A stretch of DNA of 64,000 nt from a virus (Duplodnaviria > Caudoviricetes), in IMG/VR virus record IMGVR_UViG_3300032038_000045, positions 25,174 through 89,173 of that record. One strand, given 5' to 3'. The translations under genes and the position numbers were made by a program. Of this stretch, positions 857 to 27,100 are shown one piece after another (position 1 is the first letter of the stretch; each line of letters starts with the position of its first letter). Below the pieces are notes generated by a model. The model worked only from the letters and a program-made list of their open reading frames with translations. It did no database searches and was not told where the DNA came from.

Positions 857-2467
857 ATGGCTGAAGTTTTTACAAAGAATCTTGGAAAAGTATGTCTTAC
901 TTGTGATGGTTATTGGGATTCTACCAAATCTTACGAAAGACTTTGCTTAGTTACTGTAGAATATTCTGATGGTAAAGTTGAAGCTTATGTTTCAAGAAAA
1001 GCTGTACCAGCAGGAGTTTCCCCTGTAAAGGGAAGTGTTACTGAGTATTGGCAGATAATTTATACTTGCGCTGGCCATGATGGTGGTGACAGCGATAAAA
1101 AAAAATATAGGCTAACTATAAATACTAATCCAGGTTCTGCAACTGTTAAAATGAATGGTATAGTTGTTTCTTCTAAAACTAAAGAGTTTTATGAGGGAAC
1201 AACTGTTACCGTTGAAGTAAGTGCAAGCGGATATACTACTAAAACAAGAACTTATACTTTAAGTGCTGATGTAACTGATACTATATCGTTGGATGCTATT
1301 ACTACTGTTAAACACAGACTTACTATAAATACTGTTCCTTCAGGTGCTTTTGTATATATGAATAATTCTCTTGTTAGTTCTAAGACAAAAGAATTTGATG
1401 AAGGTACCGTTGTAAATGTTAGAGTTCAGTTATCTGGTTATGGTAGTGAAACGAGAAGTTACACTATGAATACTGATATTACTGATACTATAACATTAAG
1501 TCAGGTACAACCTACTACATATATAGTTACTATTGGAACTCCTACTCCAAGTAATGCTGTAATAAAAGTAGATGGTGTTACTAAACAACCTGGAGATACT
1601 ATTGAAGTAACTGCTGGAACAAGAATAACTGTTACTGCTACTGCAGATGGTTATGAAAATTATAGTCAACAATTTACTATAAATAGTAATAGAACAATAA
1701 CTCCTGTTCTTACAAAAATTCCTGATGTTAGAGTTTTTACTATAGATGGTAATTCAGATTCGTTTACTAAAAATGTAGAATTTGGTACTCAACAAGTTGT
1801 TCTTGATTTTGTTTCTTTATTAAATAATGAAAGTGTAAATGTAGTAGAAGTTACTTCTACTGGCAACTTAGCGGCTGTTGTAAATAATAATACTAAAAAA
1901 ATTACATTAAGTAGAATAGATAGTGCTGCTGGTATAAATGGAACTTCTTCATTTAAACAAAGTGATGATAATAAAGTTATAGTTGTAACTATATCTATGA
2001 ATGAAGAAGGAGAAGCCGTTTATACTTTGACCGCTGATGGAAGTTCTAATGATGTTACAAAGAACATAAATGCTGCTGGTGGAACGATAAATATACCTAT
2101 TGTATCTAAGAAAACTCAAAGTGGAGTTGATACAAATGCAAATTACAGTATTTCTGGTAATGATTTTACTAATAACAATAATGTTGTAAGTATTAATGTA
2201 CCAGCAAATAACAATACTTCTTCGAGAACATACAGTACCACTGTTACTCAAGCTGAATCCGGTAAAACTTTAACTATAACAGTTGTTCAAGCTGGAGTTG
2301 CAGCATATGTAAATGTTGAAGACATTAATGGTAATGAGTTAGAAAATCTTTATTTTACCGCTGATGGTATTCCTTGTGATTCCAATGGAGATCCTCTAAG
2401 TGGTGCTACTCAAGTTGATGGACAAAACATTTATGTTAAATCTAATACTACATGGAGTGTAATTTAA
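857..2467 (+). CDS. fibre/adhesin protein with 3 PEGA-like repeats, a BACON-like domain and a C-terminal half BACON
   Basis: Tandem ~65-aa repeats (RLTINTxP...VSSKTKEFxEGT..V.V..SGY); Thr/Ser/Val-rich beta composition; VPANNNTSSRTYSTTVTQ; ends LYFTADG...VKSNTTWSVI. Confidence 0.75.
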   Translation: MAEVFTKNLGKVCLTCDGYWDSTKSYERLCLVTVEYSDGKVEAYVSRKAVPAGVSPVKGSVTEYWQIIYTCAGHDGGDSDKKKYRLTINTNPGSATVKMNGIVVSSKTKEFYEGTTVTVEVSASGYTTKTRTYTLSADVTDTISLDAITTVKHRLTINTVPSGAFVYMNNSLVSSKTKEFDEGTVVNVRVQLSGYGSETRSYTMNTDITDTITLSQVQPTTYIVTIGTPTPSNAVIKVDGVTKQPGDTIEVTAGTRITVTATADGYENYSQQFTINSNRTITPVLTKIPDVRVFTIDGNSDSFTKNVEFGTQQVVLDFVSLLNNESVNVVEVTSTGNLAAVVNNNTKKITLSRIDSAAGINGTSSFKQSDDNKVIVVTISMNEEGEAVYTLTADGSSNDVTKNINAAGGTINIPIVSKKTQSGVDTNANYSISGNDFTNNNNVVSINVPANNNTSSRTYSTTVTQAESGKTLTITVVQAGVAAYVNVEDINGNELENLYFTADGIPCDSNGDPLSGATQVDGQNIYVKSNTTWSVI

Positions 2468-2480
2468 ACTAAAGTAAATA

Positions 2481-3143
2481 ATGGCAAAACCTTCTTATAT
2501 AACTTGTGCTCCTACAAGTGGGAGTAACAATGGAACTGTAAAAGTTACTTGTACATCTGGATATAAAGGACGTTCTCAAAGAAGTGGTAATATAACAATA
2601 GGTTCAAAATCTGTAGGTGTTACTCAATTTGGTGCGCCACTTTATGTAATTATTACTGCTAATAAAACTACTGCCGATAAAAGCGGTGATACTATAATTA
2701 TTACTGGTAGAACAAATGGTAGAGTTATAAGTGTATCTACGAATAATAGTGCTGTTTTTCCTATTTCTTCTTTAGTTTACAATAATACTAATGGAAGTGG
2801 TTCTGATTCATCTAAAACAGTTACACCTGCTTCTGACCCTGGAGCAAATGAAGAAATAACTTTTACTGCCACAATAAATGTTCCAGCTAATGAAAGCACT
2901 TCTATAAGAAATGGTAGAATAACTGCAAGTGTTCAAGGTGATACTTCTGCACAAACTGCAAGTAATAATATTAACTTGAGCCAGCAAGCTGGAAATGCTA
3001 CGTTAAATGTAAGTCCTACTAATTTATACTTTACTGCAGACGGTGTGCCTTGCAATGCTAATGGTGACGAGATTAGCGGAGCAACTCAGGCAAATGGTCA
3101 AAATATAACTGTTACTTCTAATACTACATGGGAAGTTAGTTAA
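2481..3143 (+). CDS. BACON-domain fibre protein
   Basis: PTSGSNNGTVKVT, DPGA, VPANESTSIRNGRITA and VTSNTTW are BACON-type motifs. Confidence 0.75.
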   Translation: MAKPSYITCAPTSGSNNGTVKVTCTSGYKGRSQRSGNITIGSKSVGVTQFGAPLYVIITANKTTADKSGDTIIITGRTNGRVISVSTNNSAVFPISSLVYNNTNGSGSDSSKTVTPASDPGANEEITFTATINVPANESTSIRNGRITASVQGDTSAQTASNNINLSQQAGNATLNVSPTNLYFTADGVPCNANGDEISGATQANGQNITVTSNTTWEVS

Positions 3144-3154
3144 TTGATTTTACA

Positions 3155-3469
3155 ATGTATGTAGAAACTATTTTATCTTATGTTAGTGAAAGTTTTAATT
3201 TTGCTTATGTTATAACAATTAATATTGTTGTGTATCTTCTCCTTTACGGGGTAGGTTATATTACAAAAAAGGAAATTAAAAAACCTTATAAAATATTAAC
3301 AACAATTATAGTTACTATAATATTTGCATTTATTTATCACTTTACTACTGAGATAACAAATGAACAATTAATTAATAGTTCAATTCTTGCTCCAGTTAGT
3401 TGGGATTGGATTATTAAGCCTATATTACAGAAACTTAAAATAGATTATAATAAAGATGGAGCGTTTTAA
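3155..3469 (+). CDS. putative holin
   Basis: 104 aa, 2-3 hydrophobic segments, charged C-terminus (KPILQKLKIDYNKD). Confidence 0.55.
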   Translation: MYVETILSYVSESFNFAYVITINIVVYLLLYGVGYITKKEIKKPYKILTTIIVTIIFAFIYHFTTEITNEQLINSSILAPVSWDWIIKPILQKLKIDYNKDGAF

Positions 3470-3932
3470 ACCTTGGAAAGAGTTAGTTTTAGCTCTTAGA
3501 AGTATTGCTGATGCTATAGAAGGAGGAAATGATTCTCAAGGAAGTGGTGAAATTGACAATACTATATATAGATATAATGGAGCTAAAAGAGTAATGTTAG
3601 TTAACAGAAATTTTGATAACAGTAAATTTTCGCTTGATTTTAGTAATCCGAGTTCTTTAGGAACTATAAATTTATTAGGTGATTTGCTTAATCAAGAAGG
3701 TGTAGATATATTAAACAATATTATTGATTCACTTATCAAAGAAGATACTTATACTTATGAGATAGGAGCATTTTTTAAAACTAATGCAGGAAGTGTATTT
3801 TTTCCTATATTTCTTCTTACTAAAGAAAACAATAAAATTATGCTTGAAGGTGATTTCCTTATTGGGAAACATTTTGAAACTACTGATAAATTTAGTGTGA
3901 ATGATGAAGTTAAAACTGAGGAAGAACACTAA
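3456..3932 (+). CDS. hypothetical protein, paralog family A
   Basis: N-terminus FKPWKEL..A...I..AIEG and internal DLLNQEGVDILN shared with 3945-4409. Confidence 0.7.
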   Translation: MERFKPWKELVLALRSIADAIEGGNDSQGSGEIDNTIYRYNGAKRVMLVNRNFDNSKFSLDFSNPSSLGTINLLGDLLNQEGVDILNNIIDSLIKEDTYTYEIGAFFKTNAGSVFFPIFLLTKENNKIMLEGDFLIGKHFETTDKFSVNDEVKTEEEH

Positions 3933-3944
3933 TTTTAAATTATT

Positions 3945-4409
3945 ATGGAAACTTTTAAAGCATGGAAAGAGCTTATAAAAGCTGTTAAAGGTATTAGTTC
4001 TGCTATAGAAGGTGAAGACTCTAAAGGAGGTTCTTGTGAAGTTGATAACATTAATTATATTAATGAGGAAGAAAGAATTTTATTTAATAGAAATTTAGAT
4101 AATACAAAATTAGCGTTTGATGCAGCTACTGGTCCTACAAGTATGCAAAAAGTTGGGGATTTATTTAATCAAGAAGGTATTGATATAATAAATAGTATGT
4201 TGCCTATTTTAGTTAATAATCAAGAGAGATATTGGGATGTTTATTTTTTCATAAAAGATGCACCTACTGGAAATGTTGCACAACCTATAGTTAAATTAAT
4301 GTATAATGGAGTTGATAATTTGTTTGCTATGAAATGTGGTGGATATGTTGCAAGAATTAGTGATAAATTTACTTTAGACACTGCTATGTCTCAAGGTGGT
4401 GTAGCATAA
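3945..4409 (+). CDS. hypothetical protein, paralog family A
   Basis: Tandem paralog of 3456-3932 (FKAWKEL, AIEG, DLFNQEGIDIIN). Confidence 0.7.
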   Translation: METFKAWKELIKAVKGISSAIEGEDSKGGSCEVDNINYINEEERILFNRNLDNTKLAFDAATGPTSMQKVGDLFNQEGIDIINSMLPILVNNQERYWDVYFFIKDAPTGNVAQPIVKLMYNGVDNLFAMKCGGYVARISDKFTLDTAMSQGGVA

Positions 4410-4465
4410 ACTTACAATTAAAAATATTGCTCTTGCTAACTAATTTTATATAGATAGAATAGATT

Positions 4466-4594
4466 ATGAATATCCATATAATTGAAATTAAAAAGCTATT
4501 AAATAAAATAGTTAAAGGTAATTCAAATTCTTTTGTTAGTAATCAAAACAATTCTTCTGAAAATAAAAATAAAATAGAAGATAATAAAAAATAA
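4466..4594 (+). CDS. 42-aa small ORF not in the supplied track
   Basis: MNIHIIEIKKLLNKIVKGNSNSF... mirrors the N-terminus of 4606-4884 (DIIEIKKLLNQIVKNSQGF). Confidence 0.55.
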   Translation: MNIHIIEIKKLLNKIVKGNSNSFVSNQNNSSENKNKIEDNKK

Positions 4595-4605
4595 ATTTTA
4601 ATATT

Positions 4606-4884
4606 ATGCTTACAGAAAGAGATATTATTGAAATAAAGAAACTTCTTAATCAAATTGTAAAAAATAGTCAAGGTTTTATAACTCTTGACCAACTTAATGA
4701 AATTTTACAAAATGCTGGTTATGAAATTAGTAGTAATAAAAGTCAAAGTGTAAATGAAAATTCTACTTCAGACGAATATCCTTCTGGAGCTGCTATTGCA
4801 TCTTTAGCTGAAACTTGGACTTTTACTTTAGACGATAATACACAAGTAACGAAAAAAGTATTATGCTTAACTTTGCAGCCGTAA
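4606..4884 (+). CDS. small tail-fibre-associated protein
   Basis: 92 aa; helical N-terminus; ETWTFTLDDNTQVTKKV resembles short phage fibre end motifs. Confidence 0.55.
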   Translation: MLTERDIIEIKKLLNQIVKNSQGFITLDQLNEILQNAGYEISSNKSQSVNENSTSDEYPSGAAIASLAETWTFTLDDNTQVTKKVLCLTLQP

Positions 4885-6248
4885 AACAAATTGTCATACC
4901 TGAAGGAAATGTAATAGCTATTGATGATGAAAATAATGTTAGGATATGGCAAGCAGCTTTTGATGCTATAGTAAATGGAGTTTCTCCTTTAACTTTGCCT
5001 TCTGCTGTTAGAGCAGCTGTAGTTTATCTTAAGCAACAAGGAATTTGTGAACAAAACGGTACTCCTACTCCTACAAGTCCTGTAGATATAAAATGTAATA
5101 ATGGAGTTATAAGAATTAAAGATAGAGAACTTCCTTACGGGTATAGAAGACTTATAGGTATTAATTTTGATGGAAATGTTTTCTATGATACTGGAATGAA
5201 ATTATATGGTAGTGATACTTTAAAGTTTAAATTTAAAGCATCTATTGCCTGTAATGTTTTAGGATGTTATACTTCTGCTTCTGCACAAACTAATTATTCT
5301 TTATATGTAGGAACTTCTGCTACTCCTACTTATCTTAGATATAATGGAGGTTCTTATAATTCTAAAATAGACGCAAATGATTGGTATGATGTAACTATTA
5401 CTCCTACTGGTTCTCAAGGAATGAAAACTGATTCTACTTGGGCAGCCAAATCTTTTACTACAGATTCTGATTTATTAATAGGTAGTACTTCTTATGGAGC
5501 TACTTCTGCAAAATTAACTGGAGCTTTGGAAGGAAATATTGTAGTTCTTGGAAGAGAAACAATTATTCCTTGTAAAAGAGTTTCAGATGGAAAACTTGGT
5601 TATTATATGAAACTTGCAAATAGATTTATAGAAAATCAAGGAACTGGAACTCCTACTTCATTGGGATATGATAATACTTATTATGATGAATTATTTGTTG
5701 ATGGTACTTCTGAAGTTTTAACTCTTAATTCTCAAACTGCTTCTGTTAAAAACTTGTTTGCAGTAGGGGATTATAAAGATGAACAAGATATTATAAGCGG
5801 AAATATAATAAGAAGAGTTAAAATACTTGTTTTAGATGGAGAAACTGAATTAGAAGAAGGTTATGCTTTTAGTGGAGCTAATAATTGTATGATACTTTAT
5901 ATTTACGATGGAATAAATGAAACTTATACTCCTTTATGTACTCATTTTGCTGGTACTACAAAATATGGAAGTTCTATGCCAAATAATAGTATTATTGTAA
6001 GGGTTTCTGGTAATAGACGTACTATTAGTATAAAAAATAATAATTGGTCGAATATACAAGATTATACCAATTTTATGAAAGCTCAATATGAAGCTGGAAC
6101 ACCTGTCATTGTAATTTATTCTCTTGAAACAGAAACTACAGAACAAGTAATTCCTCAACTTCTTAATACTATAGAAGGAGATAATGTTGTAACTGTTACT
6201 GCAGAAGTTTCTAATATTGCTTTGGAAGTTAAATATAAAAGAAATTAG
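4863..6248 (+). CDS. tail fibre / receptor-binding protein candidate with lectin-like beta domains
   Basis: 461 aa, beta-rich; GICEQNGTPTPTSPVDI and YRRLIGINFDGNVFYDTG...GYY segments resemble phage fibre modules. Confidence 0.55.
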   Translation: MLNFAAVKQIVIPEGNVIAIDDENNVRIWQAAFDAIVNGVSPLTLPSAVRAAVVYLKQQGICEQNGTPTPTSPVDIKCNNGVIRIKDRELPYGYRRLIGINFDGNVFYDTGMKLYGSDTLKFKFKASIACNVLGCYTSASAQTNYSLYVGTSATPTYLRYNGGSYNSKIDANDWYDVTITPTGSQGMKTDSTWAAKSFTTDSDLLIGSTSYGATSAKLTGALEGNIVVLGRETIIPCKRVSDGKLGYYMKLANRFIENQGTGTPTSLGYDNTYYDELFVDGTSEVLTLNSQTASVKNLFAVGDYKDEQDIISGNIIRRVKILVLDGETELEEGYAFSGANNCMILYIYDGINETYTPLCTHFAGTTKYGSSMPNNSIIVRVSGNRRTISIKNNNWSNIQDYTNFMKAQYEAGTPVIVIYSLETETTEQVIPQLLNTIEGDNVVTVTAEVSNIALEVKYKRN

Positions 6249-6250
6249 GT

Positions 6251-6383
6251 ATGGCTATAAAAAAATCTTGCAGATTATCAAAAAGATATTAATAATATTG
6301 ATAATCAAATTGCACAACTTACACAATTAAGACAAAGGACTTTAGATATTTATAATAAAAATGTTGCTGTTAACTTCGTATAA
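6251..6383 (+). pseudogene. 43-aa coiled-coil-like ORF broken by one extra A in an A7 tract
   Basis: Removing one A from 6259-6265 gives MAIKNLADYQKDINNIDNQIAQLTQLRQRTLDIYNKNVAVNFV; the DYQKDIN frame matches the intact paralog at 6897. Confidence 0.55.
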
Positions 6384-6939
6384 TTTTATTTTATTATGGT
6401 TCTCAGAAATAAAACTATTATAACCAAAAAGAATGGTTCTATTTTTATTCCAAATAGAATAATAAGAGCTGAATATCCTGCTGGTAATAAAAGTGATAGT
6501 GGTGATGATGATTCCAATTCAAAAATTTATTATCTTAAGATATTATCAGATGATTTTATAAAAGGAATAGATATTCTTGCTTCTTCAAGTGCTGGATTTA
6601 TAGGTCTTGTATATTTGAAAAGCTATTTTCAAGATGGTCAAAGAGTGTTTAAAGAACATATTACAACTCGTGATAAATTTTCAAAATGTGTACTTGTTCA
6701 TTATACAAATTTTACTGGCAACGTTATTGCAGGAAGGCTTGATTTTATATCACCACAATTTGATACAGTTACTTCAGATAATTTTAAGGGAAGAGAATTG
6801 ATATTTTTGTCACTTAACACACTATATCTTAATGAAATTATAAATGCTCTTGATGAAAGTGTAAAATATGAAACAAATTTTTAATTAAATTAAGATATGG
6901 TTTTTAAAATAAGTTCAGATTATCAAAAAGATATTAATA
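6271..6939 (+). repeat. 24-bp direct repeat CAGATTATCAAAAAGATATTAATA at 6271-6294 and 6916-6939
   Basis: Exact match read from sequence; each copy precedes a variable-cassette gene. Confidence 0.9.
6396..6884 (+). CDS. hypothetical protein in variable cassette
   Basis: 162 aa; acidic Gly/Ser linker followed by IYYLK, similar layout to 6971-7549. Confidence 0.6.
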   Translation: MVLRNKTIITKKNGSIFIPNRIIRAEYPAGNKSDSGDDDSNSKIYYLKILSDDFIKGIDILASSSAGFIGLVYLKSYFQDGQRVFKEHITTRDKFSKCVLVHYTNFTGNVIAGRLDFISPQFDTVTSDNFKGRELIFLSLNTLYLNEIINALDESVKYETNF

Positions 6940-6998
6940 GTATTTATAATAAAATTATATTCGCAGTATTATGTTTGCAAAATTATTGGCAGAATTAA
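6897..6998 (+). CDS. 33-aa small ORF not in the supplied track
   Basis: MVFKISSDYQKDINSIYNK...; shares 24 identical bp with 6271-6294. Confidence 0.35.
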   Translation: MVFKISSDYQKDINSIYNKIIFAVLCLQNYWQN

Positions 6999-7549
6999 AA
7001 AGAATAGCTATATTGCTTCAAAGCAAAAAGTTAGTTGATAAAGATTATGTTCCTGATGAAGGTGGAAGTGAAAGTGATGATAAATTTTATTTATTAAAAG
7101 GAGGTAGTGTAGCACCAGAAATACCCCAAATGGCAGTTATATGCGGTATTTCTTTTCAAAAATTGGATTTAACCAAGATTGATTTTACAACTATAACTGG
7201 TGACTGTCTTGCTAATGAATTATTTACAACAAAAGGTATTGATGTTATTAATAAAATTATAAAAAGTTTACATCCAGCTTTTATTGGTGATGGCTATAGG
7301 ACCAAATATTATTTTTCTACTATAGAATCTAAAGATTATAATTCAATATGGCTACCTAAGAGCACTGATGAACCTGATTTTATGCTAAGAGGATATAATG
7401 ATCAAACAGAAAAAGAAAGTATTAGAGGAATTATAATAAGTGTTACTATAGATGATAAAAAATATCTTACTGCGGCACTTTCAAAAGGAACTTATTTAAC
7501 TGAAAATACTCAGTTTATATATGTAAATGATGAAACCCAAGAACATTAA
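6971..7549 (+). CDS. hypothetical protein, distant member of paralog family A
   Basis: Amphipathic N-helix, PDEGGSESDDK linker, ELFTTKGIDVINKII matches the family A motif. Confidence 0.6.
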   Translation: MFAKLLAELKRIAILLQSKKLVDKDYVPDEGGSESDDKFYLLKGGSVAPEIPQMAVICGISFQKLDLTKIDFTTITGDCLANELFTTKGIDVINKIIKSLHPAFIGDGYRTKYYFSTIESKDYNSIWLPKSTDEPDFMLRGYNDQTEKESIRGIIISVTIDDKKYLTAALSKGTYLTENTQFIYVNDETQEH

Positions 7550-7719
7550 TATAACTTGATTTATTAATATTTTAATTTGTTGTTGTAACACACTGTGATA
7601 GCGTTAATATTATTTTGTAATGGTAATATTATTAAAATAATCAATACTATAAATTAAATTTAGGTTTAGAATGTATTGCTGCAAAATAAATTTTAAAATA
7701 TAAAAAAAATATAATTATA

Positions 7720-8511
7720 ATGGCAAGTATAGAACAACTTGTTTCTGAAATTGCTCATAGTGTTCAGCAAGCGAATAGCATACCCGTAAGGCGTGCTATT
7801 CGCCTTGCTGTTATACATAATAGAAATAAACTTATTAGACAAAGTTTTGAAAGACATAATTATATTGATAAAGTTCTTCAGCAAAGATTTCGTATTTCTT
7901 TAATTCCTTGTCCCGATGGAGATATCAATACTGAATTATTCCTTTACGGGGGAGATTTATATGATAAAAGTTTAGAAGATAGTGAAACTGAACCTACTAT
8001 TCGTAGAAGTGAATATATTGATGAATTTGGAGAAGTACATAAAATTCTTCGTAGTAAACAAAGAGTTCCACGTCCTACAAGATTAGATAATAATCTTCCA
8101 TTTCTTTCTGTAAGAACTACTGGTGTTAGAAATCCAATAGAAATACCTTTTGTTAAAGAAGCTGGAAGCAAATATTATCGTCATCTTCCTGGTATGTGTA
8201 AAAGTATTTCTTATGATTATATCAATCAATATATTTATTTAGATGTTACTAAGAATACTGATTTTATAAATTTAGGTTCAATAATTGTAGAATCTCCTTT
8301 TGAATATCCTACAATAATAGATGATGAAGAAACTGTGTATTCTGGAATACAAGAAGAACATTTCGATGGTAATAAAACTTATACCGCTGATGATGAATTT
8401 ATGATTTCTGAAGATATGATTTATGATATTAAGAAACTTGTTCTTGATGAGTTTAATTCTCAAGTAATTCGAGAAACAAATGAAGTACCAACTCCTAATC
8501 TAATGAAATAA
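7720..8511 (+). CDS. tail ring/tubular protein candidate
   Basis: 263 aa; helical N-terminus, beta body and helical C-terminus; position upstream of the tail stabilisation gene. Confidence 0.5.
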   Translation: MASIEQLVSEIAHSVQQANSIPVRRAIRLAVIHNRNKLIRQSFERHNYIDKVLQQRFRISLIPCPDGDINTELFLYGGDLYDKSLEDSETEPTIRRSEYIDEFGEVHKILRSKQRVPRPTRLDNNLPFLSVRTTGVRNPIEIPFVKEAGSKYYRHLPGMCKSISYDYINQYIYLDVTKNTDFINLGSIIVESPFEYPTIIDDEETVYSGIQEEHFDGNKTYTADDEFMISEDMIYDIKKLVLDEFNSQVIRETNEVPTPNLMK

Positions 8512-9371
8512 TGAACTTTGACTTACTTGGCGATGTAAATGCCAAAAGTGTTTATTTAAGATTACAACATAAATCTCGTGGAGAGTATAGTAGTCTTTGT
8601 AGAAAATTAGATAGAATACTTAAAGCTAAAGAACAGTCTTACGATTATTTATTTGCCCGTAAAGAAGATATATGCAAGACTCTCAAAATTAATCTTCTTA
8701 ATTATCCTATTGAATTTGGAGAACAAACCTTTAATGAAGAGTTGGGTCTTGAAACTAAAGTTTCCAAACTTCTTCGTCTTAAAACAGATAGTCAATATAG
8801 ACAAGATATTGTTCAACTCGCCAAATGGTGTTCTATCATTAGAAATGAACATGATTTAAATAATAAAATTATTATTGCTAAAAAGAAACTAAACCTTAAT
8901 TATAAAGCTTATGAAAATCTAATATTTTTATTTTTTCAAGAAGTTCAAAAAGTTCTCCTACAAGGAGACATTTATAAAATGGGTTATGGTTTAGGTTCTA
9001 TATACTTAGATTGTGTTGAATATAATGAAGGTTCTAAACGAATAGATTTTGCTAAAACTTTAGCTTATAAAAAAGAATTGATTGAATCTGGTAATTTTGA
9101 TGAAAAAACTGATTATAGAATTAAATTTAATAAAAATAAAGACTTGTATCTTAGAGTAGTTAATAGTATGTATTTTACAAGTCAAAAGATGATGAAGTTT
9201 AAATGGAGTGATTATGTAAATGGTAAATATAGAGGCATGATTTATAAAGAAATTTATGATAAGTTTGTTAAAAAAGAAGATGATGTATATTCAATGCAAT
9301 TAAGTCTTAAAAGAAAAATAAATCTTCTTGGATATATTAATCCTGGATTTTATCTTAAATTTAAAAATTAA
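8511..9371 (+). CDS. IHF/HU-like domain protein (crAss type)
   Basis: FFQEVQKVLLQGDIYKMGYGLGSIYL resembles the HU/IHF helix-beta core; basic protein; typical crAss location. Confidence 0.55.
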   Translation: MNFDLLGDVNAKSVYLRLQHKSRGEYSSLCRKLDRILKAKEQSYDYLFARKEDICKTLKINLLNYPIEFGEQTFNEELGLETKVSKLLRLKTDSQYRQDIVQLAKWCSIIRNEHDLNNKIIIAKKKLNLNYKAYENLIFLFFQEVQKVLLQGDIYKMGYGLGSIYLDCVEYNEGSKRIDFAKTLAYKKELIESGNFDEKTDYRIKFNKNKDLYLRVVNSMYFTSQKMMKFKWSDYVNGKYRGMIYKEIYDKFVKKEDDVYSMQLSLKRKINLLGYINPGFYLKFKN

Positions 9372-9377
9372 CGAGTT

Positions 9378-10043
9378 ATGGCAATTAAAGGTAATTTTGT
9401 TTTTACACCAACCTCTGGTAGTGGAAACAACACAATAAAAGTTACTTGTGGAACTACTGCTAATACTGCAAACAACAAAAACACTGTTGATACACAAGAA
9501 CAAATAACTGTTGAAATTCCTGGTGGAACTTCTAAAACTGTAAATCTTATTCAGTTCAAGAAAGAATCTCAAGAATTTGTTTATGTTAAACCTTGTGAAA
9601 TAAGTACTCTTGGTGCTGGAGGTTTCATTGATAATGAAGCTTTAGTGGTAGAAAATGCTGGCACTTATGATGTTTATTTAAAATTTAAAGTTGTAAATTA
9701 TAATGCATCTGGTCTTGTTAATGTCCCGATGATTATTAATGCAAATGTTCCTGCTACCAGCAAAAATAGTATAGGTGCTAAACTTCAAAGTCTTCAAACT
9801 ACTGTACCTCTTCAAAACGGAGTTATAACTGGAAATGGACAATACTATATTAAGATTGCTGGTTTAACTTCTAATCCTCTTAATGATACTGCCAGTTTCA
9901 GATTTTATCAAAACACTAATGGAAAATTCTATGATTTAGCTGGTGGTGGAGAATATACAAATGAAACTGATGTTCCTCCTGTATTCTTAGGTACTGTTCA
10001 GTCCGCTGTTAATCCTCCGGCAGGCAATATTATTAATTTCTAA
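9378..10043 (+). CDS. fibre-associated protein beginning with the second half of a BACON domain
   Basis: TPTSGSGNNTIKVTC...QITVEIPGGTSKTVNLIQ, followed by an unrelated beta domain. Confidence 0.6.
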   Translation: MAIKGNFVFTPTSGSGNNTIKVTCGTTANTANNKNTVDTQEQITVEIPGGTSKTVNLIQFKKESQEFVYVKPCEISTLGAGGFIDNEALVVENAGTYDVYLKFKVVNYNASGLVNVPMIINANVPATSKNSIGAKLQSLQTTVPLQNGVITGNGQYYIKIAGLTSNPLNDTASFRFYQNTNGKFYDLAGGGEYTNETDVPPVFLGTVQSAVNPPAGNIINF

Positions 10044-10046
10044 TAA

Positions 10047-10964
10047 ATGAATAAAACTACTTATACAACTGTTGAAAGGATTATAGCAAAAATTGATAAT
10101 GACTTTAATCCTAACAATAGTGATTGGATACCTCGAGTTGGTGCTTGGTGTATAGATGCTATGCACCAACTTGATGTTACAATGACAAGTAAAGTTAAGA
10201 AAAAACTTCTTGTTAAAGATAGAGTTGCAAGAAGTGAATGTTGTCTTTCAGACCTTGATCTTACTGTTTATGATGAAAACGGTTGTATAGTTCCTAAAGC
10301 AGGTAGTAAAAGTGGTTGTTGTGGAGCAGCAAATAATGGCTCTATGCAATCTCCCTCTACGGGGAAAGAAGAATTAGTTTCTGGTAATACTCTTTATACT
10401 ATTGACGATAATAGTAGAAATGGTGAAGATGGAGGAGCAGAAACAATGCTTCATCATATGAGAACTCATAGAACAGTTGAACTCGAATATACAAATAGAG
10501 AAGAAACTGTTGATATGCGTGCCCAAAGAATTAATCACAAAGATTATCCTGCTCGATACAATGTTGTTGAGATTTATAAAGGTGGAGGAAGTCAAGGTAG
10601 AAACTATGTAGTTTCTGGAGGATACACTCTTGAACTCAACTATGATGCTGATTATGTTTATATTGAATATGATACTATAGATACAGTAAAAGGAATGGAT
10701 GGAGTTGAATATCCAGTTATTCCTAACAATGGAAAACTTATTGAAGCCATTGTTTATTATTGTATGTATAAAATGCTTTGTAGAGGTTATAAACATCCTG
10801 TATTTAATCTTGCTGCATCTCAATATGGAACAAATCCTTATTATATTTGGATGAATACTAAAGATGAAGCTAAAAGAAGTGTTATTAATGATGGCATAAA
10901 TGAAGATGTATCTAAGTTGTTTAGGAGCAGCTTATTTATATCAACCTTTTATCCTCGTGGATAG
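10047..10964 (+). CDS. tail tubular/ring protein (P22 gp4-like, crAss Ttub)
   Basis: 305 aa directly upstream of the stabilisation gene; helical ends with a low-complexity insert. Confidence 0.6.
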   Translation: MNKTTYTTVERIIAKIDNDFNPNNSDWIPRVGAWCIDAMHQLDVTMTSKVKKKLLVKDRVARSECCLSDLDLTVYDENGCIVPKAGSKSGCCGAANNGSMQSPSTGKEELVSGNTLYTIDDNSRNGEDGGAETMLHHMRTHRTVELEYTNREETVDMRAQRINHKDYPARYNVVEIYKGGGSQGRNYVVSGGYTLELNYDADYVYIEYDTIDTVKGMDGVEYPVIPNNGKLIEAIVYYCMYKMLCRGYKHPVFNLAASQYGTNPYYIWMNTKDEAKRSVINDGINEDVSKLFRSSLFISTFYPRG

Positions 10965-24100: not shown

Positions 24101-27100
24101 TCTTAGTCTTTTTGATGAAGAAGGTGAACTTCCTCAGAGAATAACTGAAGAAGAAAAGAAGATTATTGATGATTTTCAACAAGAGCGATTACTTACTAAT
24201 GGTGATGATATTCCTTTCATTACTTCTTATAATGCAGTTGAAGAAATAATTAAAACTCATAAAACTCTTTGGCAGAACACTGTTAAAGATGGAGTTGGAA
24301 GTAAAGCTTATACAGAATTTATAGAATTAGTTAAAGATTATATGATTGTTAATCTTAATAATTCTAAAGCTGTAGCTGATAAATATGCTGAACTTGGCTT
24401 AAGATTGTTTGTCGATAGAATCAGTAATGCTGGTAAAAATGCTTCTACTCCTCAAGGTAAAAAACTTAAAGAGTTTTTCAATGCTATAACTGAAGCTTTA
24501 GGTTTTAATTCTGAAACTGGTGATAGTAGGTATGAAGGTTTATCTGAAGAAGAAGCTCAGAGTAAGAAAGATGAATCTATTAGAAATGTCTTTGAACAAT
24601 TTATAAAATATTCTGGAGTTAAACATTCTATTGTTGATGGTAGAAAAGTTATAGATGTTGCAGATTTATTCTTAGAAATGTCTAAAACTTTTGATGACAA
24701 TAATAGAGATTATATATCTATTTTATATCTTTATAATGATATTTCTAATTTCATAAATGGATATAGAGGAACAGAATATTTATTCTTAAATAGAGGTCTT
24801 CTTTCTTTGAAGCATGAAGAATTTATAGATGCTCTTAATAAAAAGAGAACTGAAGTAAAAACTGTTTCTCCTTTTATGCACTTTAGTTCTACTTTAAATA
24901 GTAAAACTAATTCTTCAATGCAAGGTTTAAATGATGCTACTAAAATTAAAATTCTTCAACAAGCAAGAGACAAAGGTGTTACATTAAGTATAACTCGTAC
25001 ATCTAAAGGAGACCCTGTTTCTATAGCTTTCAATGTTAAATATAATGGTAAAACTTATGAATTGGGTATGTTGTCTCTTGTTGAAGGTAGTAAAGATAAT
25101 AATACTTTAACAAGTAAATACCAAGGTTTAGATATAAGTTTAACTAAGAATAATGATGGTTCTATATCCTCTTCTGAAGATTATTTATTTGATGGTATAT
25201 TAAACAATTCTGAATTATATAACTATATTGCTTCTTGGTTTAGTACTGAAAAAGCTCATTTGTTTAATGGTAATACTTCTCAATCTGCTCTCCTTGCTTT
25301 ACAAAAAATTCAATTTAATAGTAAACTTGATATTTTATCAAATCCTACTATTAAAAGATATATTGATGAACATGATTTAGAAAATCAATATAAAAAATCT
25401 AATTCTAAAAAGTCTTTTAAAGACTATGTTTTAGGAAAGATTACAGATATTGTTTTCTATGATATGTATTCTAAAGATACTACTCCTGGAGCTGTAGATA
25501 GTAAATTGAGTAATTTAATTACTAAATTTGGTATTAGAGAAAGCATAGAAAGATTCAAAGAAAAACAGTATGATAATTTCTCTCAAACTAAAGCTCTTTA
25601 TGATAAATTAGAATCTGGTGAAGAAGTAAATGCTGTATATAAGAGTGATGATGTTGGAAGTATAAGATATGATAGAACAAGAACTAAGAGTACTAATAGA
25701 CTTGGTATTGCCAATGAAACCGAACAACATCCTATAATCTATTATGATGGAAGTAAAGGTATTGATGAAAATGGTAAAATATATGCCAATATACCAGGTC
25801 TTTCTATTGGTACTATAGGTATTGTAATGGGTGAAAATCAAGGAGAATATTATATAAACGAAAATGGTGAAAAAGTTAATTCTCCTGGTGCTAATTTAGC
25901 TCTTATAACTGGAGGTAATAAAATACTTTCCAACAACAATAAATTAAATAGAGAACTTTATGATGCCCTTAAGGGTGAAATGAATTCTATAATAAATGAT
26001 TATTATGATGTTATACAAAACAATAATGCTACTTTAGCTCAAAAGAATGCAGCTTATGAAAGATTGTATAATAGATTAAATGATTTATTTGGTAATTCTG
26101 AAAATAAATTATTCTCTAATTTTATTGTTGGTAAAGGTAAAGATGTTATAGGAATTTCTACTTACATTGATGGTCAATATATTCCAGTTCTTAAAGTTTT
26201 CAAATATAAATCTTTGACTTTTGATAATGGAGTTAGAAGAAGAAATGGAAGAATAGTTGAAGGTGAAGAACTTAATCAATATTTTGGTGGAGGTTTTGCT
26301 ATAACTGTTCCTGGTGGAACTCATTATAATCAATTTAGTAATAAGAGTGAAGCTCAACAAAAGAGAATTGGAGAATTAATTGATTATATAGCTGATAATG
26401 TTGAATTTAATACAACAAGATTTGCTGTAACTAATGCAAATAATCAAAATACTCAAACTTCTCACATTAAGAAAGTTGATGGTAATATTGAAATAGAAGT
26501 TGGTTCTTTTAAACATCAATTTGACAATTTTGCTCAAGCTGTAGTTAGACTTAATATGTTTAATACAAGTCAAATTGGTACTTCTAATAGACGATATGAT
26601 TATGTTGATAAATATGGTAATCCTAAACTTCCTAAGAGTTTCTTCTTACAAATAAACGATACTGTAGCTCCTATTTCAGAACAAGAAAAAGAAGAACAAC
26701 TTGGTCTTAAAGGTTGGATTGATAGAAACAATATAGAGGAAAATGAAGAAGTAGTTTTTGAAGATGTTCTTTATGCTTCTGGTTTTAATAGTGATGTAGT
26801 TGAATCTATCAAAGATTTTAATGATTTCCTTGAAAAGAATAGTTATCCATTATTTATTAAACCTATAGTATTACTTAATGGTAATCTTAGTAGAGAAGAA
26901 AATGGTGTAACATATGAACCATTTGGTAGATATGACGGAAAGAATATTCTTCTTGGTAGAAAAGCTGCAACTTTAAAACAAAAAGAAAGTATACTTCGTA
27001 TTCTCGTTCACGAGAATATTCACAGAGTTGTAGATGAAACTAAATTCTTTGATGGAGAAGTTGGTCAAAACAGAATTAATGAAATAAATGATATATTTGA

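Follow-up and report, generated by a model that had tools for sequence, protein, structure and literature searches.

Three genes with terminal half-domains

The window analyzed here is a 64,000-nucleotide (nt) stretch of IMG/VR virus record IMGVR_UViG_3300032038_000045 (positions 25,174 to 89,173), part of an 89,173-bp genome of a gut crAss-like phage. Three of its plus-strand genes encode putative appendage proteins that start or end in one half of a BACON-like domain, and we refer to them as base, middle unit, and tip. The base protein gene (857..2467) encodes 536 amino acids (aa), comprising an anchor-like N-terminal region, three PEGA/head-fiber-dimer-type immunoglobulin-like (Ig-like) domains, more Ig-like domains, and, at the C-terminus, the first BACON-like strands, termed h1 (2330..2464). 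This h1 carries a clade-specific Cys-bearing loop insert and terminates 3 residues past the conserved Trp, the last residues before the stop codon being SNTTWSVI. A 13-nt spacer (2468..2480), in which the downstream frame has a stop codon at 2475–2477, separates the base-gene stop codon from the ATG of the middle unit gene (2481..3143). The encoded 220-aa protein consists of the second half of the domain, termed h2 (residues 1–49, nt 2481–2627), a central Ig-like domain (nt 2628–2990), and a second h1 (nt 2991–3140). Its N-terminus reads MAKPSYITCAPTSGSNNGTVKVTC, and its C-terminus ends in SNTTWEVS followed by a stop codon.

The tip protein gene (9378..10043) lies 6.2 kb downstream of the middle gene, flanked by a 286-aa gene and the gene for tail ring protein 1. 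It encodes 221 aa, in which h2 (residues 1–59, nt 9378–9554; N-terminus MAIKGNFVFTPTSGSGNNTIKVTC) precedes a C-terminal domain of approximately 160 aa with no assigned fold. Both h2-bearing proteins begin with Met-Ala, followed by about 8 residues and then by PTSGS.N.T.KVTC. A sequence-only reading of this DNA had described split halves at the ends of the three open reading frames (ORFs), and we found their coordinates and motifs as first described.

The full 89,173-bp genome was scanned with hidden Markov models (HMMs) of h1 and h2 built from relatives. Genome-wide, only two h1 matches were significant, those of the middle unit (E 4.5e-11) and the base (E 2.9e-5), which end 0 and 1 residues before the stop codon, respectively. 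Significant h2 matches also numbered only two, in the middle unit (E 2e-15) and the tip (E 4e-12); both run from the initiator Met, with an in-frame stop codon 1–2 codons upstream. A regular-expression scan of the window returned the same two h1 and two h2 segments, and no intact copy of this BACON-like domain type was detected by the HMM scan of the genome. The two h1 copies are identical at 29 of 45 residues but at only 83 of 135 bases, and their synonymous sites are saturated (pS 0.76 versus pN 0.28). The two h1 copies are old duplicates under purifying selection, not recent copies.

Relation of the halves to the BACON fold

The Pfam BACON profile (PF13004) matched residues 4–49 of the 220-aa middle protein, corresponding to profile positions 9–60 of 61 (E 9e-5). 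The score of 22.8 bits lies under the 25-bit cut-off, and the Pfam model mainly covers the h2 part; for the base and the tip, no Pfam BACON match was obtained at E up to 1. Comparison of the 220-aa family profile with solved structures gave a match to the BACON domain of BoGH5A (3ZMR_A, E 0.0038) in permuted order, the N-terminal h2 aligning with residues 43–92 and the C-terminal h1 with residues 15–39. At a marginal E-value of 0.015, 8VA4_A was matched with h2 at residues 67–121 and h1 at residues 36–64. The h1 stretch alone was not significant against solved BACON domains, but it lay in the expected position.

A natural fusion was found in locus L082 (9380–10606), where a 408-aa protein consists of two middle units joined through an intact BACON domain. 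This fused joint aligns contiguously, again at a marginal E-value (0.004), to residues 34–111 of 8VA4_A, the N-terminal domain of a GH16 enzyme. The permuted match and the contiguous L082 joint together place the cut inside the domain, in the loop past the Trp-bearing strand. Homology to solved BACON domains extends over the whole fold, albeit with marginal E-values, but the fold is not carried as one continuous domain per polypeptide. The solved BACON domain of BoGH5A is reportedly a spacer and not a binding module.

Recurrence of the cut in other phages

The 220-aa protein belongs to a family of proteins of about 200 aa that is present in many phages. All members start with MAKPSW..PTSGSGNG and all end with VTSNT.WTV[SE] before the stop codon, and the h2 and h1 termini are among the best conserved columns of the family. 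In the complete annotated genome of cr127_1 (L001; Crevaviridae), for example, a 211-aa protein that runs from h2 to h1 is encoded 10 nt past the gene for a 70-aa protein ending in h1. Two other proteins of cr127_1 contain related segments in different positions: a 238-aa protein encoded after the middle unit (9646–10362) has an h2-like segment near its C-terminus (residues 171–223) rather than at its N-terminus, and a 789-aa upstream protein contains, at internal positions, four h1-like segments whose second halves are of other kinds.

For a wider survey, 80 IMG/VR loci were collected with the middle-family profile, a choice that biases the junction counts given here. In these loci, 139 of 149 h1 matches lay at most 8 residues from a stop codon, an h2-starting ORF followed within 150 nt in 128 of the 139, and just 4 intact in-frame domains were present. 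Because many of the loci are near-identical, they were dereplicated to 19 middle-protein clusters and 52 distinct junction pairs. The stop codon falls exactly 3 residues past the Trp in 47 of the 52 distinct junctions. Across these junctions, the spacer ranges from -1 to 103 nt and the downstream gene occurs in all three frames, each downstream gene having its own Met-Ala at the equivalent structural position. The gene order, in which an h1-ending gene precedes the middle unit and an h2-starting gene follows it (X-h1/middle/h2-Y), is kept across the 19 clusters. The sequence-only reading had pointed to co-occurrence of the two half types in relatives as informative, and the survey bears this co-occurrence out, with h1-ending genes preceding h2-starting genes. 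The comparative evidence supports the view that the cut is real, ancient, and precise.

Among intact domains, some pair an h1 of the 'YLRV.P' type with a canonical h2, and none contains an h2 of the 'IPW..GGGN' type. Small upstream 'adaptor' proteins of 65–100 aa that end in h1 (L016 9715–9966 and similar) begin with short repeats of the G-I-x-V-S-V type; judging from the sequence, these repeats may be a beta-spiral oligomerization segment.

Gene chains in relatives of the base protein

Two further loci, L086 and L088, were found via the base protein and are free of the middle-family selection bias. The base homologs P0036, P0037, and P0042 have the same N-terminus and PEGA-type repeats as the base and also end in h1. 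In L088, a 539-aa base ending in h1 is followed by a 564-aa and a 635-aa protein, each starting with h2 and ending with h1, and then by a 303-aa protein starting with h2, an order that corresponds to base, middle, middle, and tip. In L086, a 449-aa base ending in h1 is followed by a 513-aa and a 526-aa protein that start with h2 and by a 322-aa protein that runs from h2 to h1. These three consecutive h2-starting genes (L086 11360–15476) look like alternative tips competing for one plug.

The relative L090, whose middle protein is 86% identical, has the same layout as the window: its tip gene likewise has the 286-aa gene on one side and ring protein 1 on the other. It differs from the window in the set of genes that separates the middle unit from ring protein 2. 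Among relatives as a whole, the number of middle units varies, being 0, 1, 2, or two fused.

Conserved cysteines and structure models

The sequence-only reading had noted a conserved Cys in each half; both occur where it placed them and persist in relatives with as little as 70% identity. Each h1 copy has a Cys-bearing insert of 16 residues; this insert and the 'KVTC' Cys of the two h2 copies are confined to this clade, and all four cysteines are retained in L090. A disulfide lock between the halves, which the earlier reading had raised, might be formed by these four clade-conserved cysteines. Virions of crAss001 do use disulfides (PMC10172136).

An AlphaFold2 (AF2) monomer model of the middle protein was all-beta and compact, with a predicted local distance difference test score (pLDDT) of 91 (about 80 at the N-terminus and about 91 at the C-terminus) and a predicted template modeling score (pTM) of 0.75. 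DSSP assigned four strands to h2 and two to three strands to h1 in this model. When the middle protein was modeled without h2, the pLDDT of h1 went from about 91 to 71–88. A Foldseek search of the full-length model against the Protein Data Bank returned generic tandem Ig matches only (integrins, complement, and self-complemented CfaB pilin fusions). The Atlas model of the tip was poor (pLDDT 0.37), with no usable neighbors. Complex prediction with base residues 390–536, the middle unit with an alignment, and tip residues 1–62 (the tip as partner) gave 0.03, 0.74, and 0.02 in its runs, with the mark at 0.32, and is not used as evidence here.

A proposed joint between chains

From the arrangement of the halves and its recurrence in other phages, we consider it fairly probable that the base, middle, and tip proteins are translated separately and joined by split-domain complementation in trans. 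A C-terminal h1, ending in W-x-x-x-stop, would contribute about three beta-strands, and the N-terminal h2 of another protein would contribute about four, beginning right after Met-Ala; h1 and h2 would co-fold as one BACON-type Ig-like sandwich, such that each joint would be a shared domain. The 220-aa middle unit would be attached to the h1 of the 536-aa base, and the 221-aa tip, encoded 6.2 kb away in the tail-ring module, to the h1 of the middle unit; alternatively, the base may carry the tip directly. Since h2 is missing from the base and h1 from the tip, the halves can fold only if at least one pairing is inter-chain, and the 2:2 balance of terminal h1 and N-terminal h2 in the genome also counts in favor of this proposal. 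The sequence-only reading had envisaged glycan-binding fibers of variable length built by polymerization of the middle unit. We saw no sign of such polymerization, as only a single gene for a middle unit is present and the halves balance at 2:2, and glycan binding likewise drew no support from the analysis. Its scheme of base, middle, and tip fared better, inasmuch as the same gene-order grammar recurs in other phages, and the middle unit may be chained in this way and not self-closed.

Several observations weigh against joining in trans. Neither physical nor modeling evidence of inter-chain binding was obtained. The gene after the second h1, that of the middle unit, encodes a small membrane protein, and the candidate partner of this h1 is 6.2 kb off; with the tip gene non-adjacent, only the 2:2 count points to a middle h1–tip h2 pair. 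Moreover, the similarity between the two h1 copies is too high for a partner to be assigned to either. The survey loci were chosen through the middle family, with the bias in junction counts mentioned above, and a simple chain does not account for L086 and L058, in which h2 outnumbers h1 and there is no balance, or for L061, in which two middle genes are present with no adjacent cap.

The confident, compact AF2 monomer of the middle unit is a further point on that side, as it is compatible with closure in cis. The 220-aa protein would then be a circular permutant, its own h2 and h1 completing a BACON domain alongside the central Ig domain to give a closed two-domain monomer; only the base h1 and the tip h2 would pair in trans, and the middle unit would be a separate virion or soluble protein. 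The model is confident at both termini, the 2:2 balance of halves fits equally well, and the two uncapped middle genes of L061 are also in line with this explanation. Linkers of about 5 residues on either side of the central domain, as judged from the secondary structure of the model, would permit antiparallel side-by-side packing. There is also a precedent in the type 1 pilin FimA, which is reported to fold as a self-complemented monomer or as a polymer (PMC6615685). Nevertheless, we regard cis closure, the main rival explanation, as unlikely. The termini of a permutant need neither residue-exact conservation nor coincidence with the cut in a neighboring gene, and here both hold; the X-h1/middle/h2-Y order is, in addition, conserved across 19 clusters. 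Middle units as long as 564, 635, and 859 aa (L088, L058) could close only by folding back across many domains, the varying number of middle units is chain-like, and the fusion joint of L082 couples the h1 of the first unit to the h2 of the second. The models themselves do not show h1 to depend on its own h2, given that removal of h2 lowers the pLDDT of h1 only to the extent described above.

That the halves do not pair at all, being remnants of a broken-up fiber gene or having separate roles such as a C-terminal chaperone tag and an N-terminal anchor, appears quite improbable to us. The absence of binding evidence, the Pfam BACON score under the cut-off, and the lack of significance of the h1 stretches alone against solved BACON domains would all agree with it. 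However, remnants would decay, whereas both halves rank with the most conserved stretches of the family, both h1 copies are under purifying selection, the cut is residue-exact in nearly all distinct junctions (47/52), and the halves co-occur and adjoin far more often than they stand alone. We give almost no credence to the notion that the split reflects a single gene expressed through frameshifting, hopping, or stop suppression, or else an assembly error or pseudogene. It is true that the halves at the first junction are just 13 nt apart and that joining them would restore a normal BACON loop length. Yet the TAA at 2475–2477 closes the downstream frame beyond the upstream stop codon at 2465–2467, leaving no overlap for a frameshift; the sequence-only reading had excluded simple readthrough because ORFs 857 and 2481 are in different frames, and this stands, the downstream frame being open only from 2478. 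The range of spacers over all three frames, the separate Met-Ala of every downstream gene at the same structural position, and the distance of 6.2 kb to the third gene likewise speak against recoding, and identical boundaries in independent assemblies speak against an artefact. Frameshifting and readthrough were rejected on the basis of the first-junction sequence and the junction statistics.

Beyond this locus, joining in trans could be part of a broader scheme, which we put forward tentatively as a conjecture that might well go either way. Several unrelated gut-phage lineages, crAss-like phages included, may connect proteins through a universal plug and socket made from an Ig-like fold that is split at one fixed loop; any h1 end could then be capped or extended by a compatible h2. 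Anchors, extensions, and tips would be combined after translation, and tip genes could lie anywhere. In the present clade, a disulfide connecting the Cys of the h1 insert with the 'KVTC' Cys of h2 would lock the joint.

Base and tip domains and neighboring genes

The base protein scored 41.6 bits against the Pfam family Head_fiber_dimeric (PF25641; cut-off 30) in three stretches, and it has PEGA matches too. Residues 82–146 of the base match the C-domain of crAss001 gp29 (7QOF, gp29 residues 55–117; E 1.3e-4), and residues 3–68 match the N-terminus of p-crAssphage KP06_gp67, which is annotated as 'putative tail protein' (E 1e-10). Base residues 1–81 showed no sequence match to the N-terminal hexon-pocket binding segment of gp29 (gp29 residues 1–58). 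With gp29-type Ig domains and a gp67-like N-terminus, the base could be located on either the head or the tail.

Close homologs of the tip were limited to P0033 (95% identity) and a 224-aa protein at the equivalent position in L090. A megablast search of the phage collection with 9.3 kb of the sequence was negative. A tblastn search with the tip gave no match, and an exhaustive HMMER search gave one close homolog, two weak repeat matches, and nothing else. Residues 70–131, in the C-terminal domain of the tip, match short repeats in the 2497-aa P0043 (six stretches, E 9e-15) and in the 863-aa P0044.

The tail-ring module around the tip gene was recognized through Pfam matches of tail ring protein 2 (7720–8511) and tail ring protein 1 (10047–10964), the latter being followed by a 1418-aa muzzle-like gene. 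PHROGs gave zero matches for ten proteins of the locus. Directly after the middle gene, a 104-aa protein with predicted membrane helices is encoded (3155–3469), with a weak holin match (E 0.056). A homolog of this membrane protein is found just before ring protein 2 in L086 (19045–19341), and from its sequence and position the protein seems to be a conserved part of the appendage module. The region 3456–7549 holds an array of small paralogous genes (158, 154, 162, and 192 aa), the products of which have a common helix-like N-terminal leader (M..FK.WKEL...), a Gly/Ser/Asp-rich linker, and unrelated C-terminal domains; a 461-aa fiber-like gene (4863–6248) is located within this array. No member of the array had a Pfam or PHROG match, and the gene set of this region is not the same in the close relative L090.

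Comparison with known systems

The halves share the signature of established BACON domains (PF13004; 3ZMR, 8VA4; phage repeat proteins such as p-crAssphage KP06_gp64, PMC6949934), namely ..SN..W.. followed by ..W....P.SGSGNG.. R ... VTQ. Phage BACON-repeat proteins also resemble the putative appendage proteins described here in being virion-surface proteins of gut Bacteroidota phages. In known cases, however, the BACON domain is a continuous stretch in a single chain, whereas here it is cut at one loop and divided over two genes. The paper on crAss BACON repeats makes no mention of split or partial domains (PMC6949934).

Among phage fiber proteins, the crAss001 head fiber dimer gp29 (7QOF; PMC10172136) is comparable to the base, which has three gp29-type Ig domains as recognized by PF25641. 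In contrast to the base, gp29 has only 118–122 residues, a capsid-binding N-terminus that the base does not match, and no half-BACON end, while the N-terminus of the base is gp67-like. Fiber assemblies were left unresolved in the structural atlas of crAss001 (PMC10172136). In a recent preprint on gut-phage Ig-like adhesins, epithelial adherence was promoted by small phage proteins that had been displayed on phage K1F (bioRxiv 10.64898/2026.02.02.702849). The proteins in question, classed as 'one BACON' or 'one BACON plus one Ig-like domain', came from gut myoviruses as well as crAss-like phages. This adherence hints at a role for appendages of the kind proposed here; the preprint does not mention split domains (bioRxiv 10.64898/2026.02.02.702849).

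In the literature, we found no paper in which phage proteins are joined through a split BACON or split Ig domain. New from this window are the head-fiber-type base, the displacement of the tip gene to the tail-ring module, the clade-specific Cys insert, and the base-anchored four-gene chain of L088. If joining in trans is correct, it would represent a principle for building virus appendages of which we found no description. Each partner would bring half a domain, neither chaperone nor usher would take part, and the principle would be conserved in many of the phages that are most abundant in the human gut. It would explain how receptor- or mucus-binding tips are swapped by movement of whole genes, and it would change the annotation of fiber genes, because the halves go unrecognized or are mis-scored in domain searches. 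Protein engineering would gain a natural split-Ig pair and, in this genome, joining in trans would link a gene of the tail-ring module to a fiber encoded 6 kb upstream.

Fold complementation is known from bacterial pili. The chaperone-usher pili (Fim, Pap, CFA/I) are similar to the proposed joint in that a neighbor completes an incomplete Ig-like fold, which leads to ordered linear assemblies with adaptor, rod, and tip, and the same cis-versus-trans question that we face with the middle protein is posed by FimA (PMC6615685). The sequence-only reading had drawn an analogy to donor-strand exchange in pili, which holds only loosely. The cut described here lies mid-domain, with four strands in h2 and two to three in h1 according to DSSP of the AF2 model, and what would be joined is about three strands with about four, not a fold that lacks one donated strand. 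No PapD-like chaperone or usher family of Pfam or PHROG was detected among the ten neighboring proteins scanned. Pilus subunits are completed by one donated strand, and the exchange is catalyzed by an usher together with a periplasmic chaperone, whereas here about three strands would meet about four in cytoplasmic phage products.

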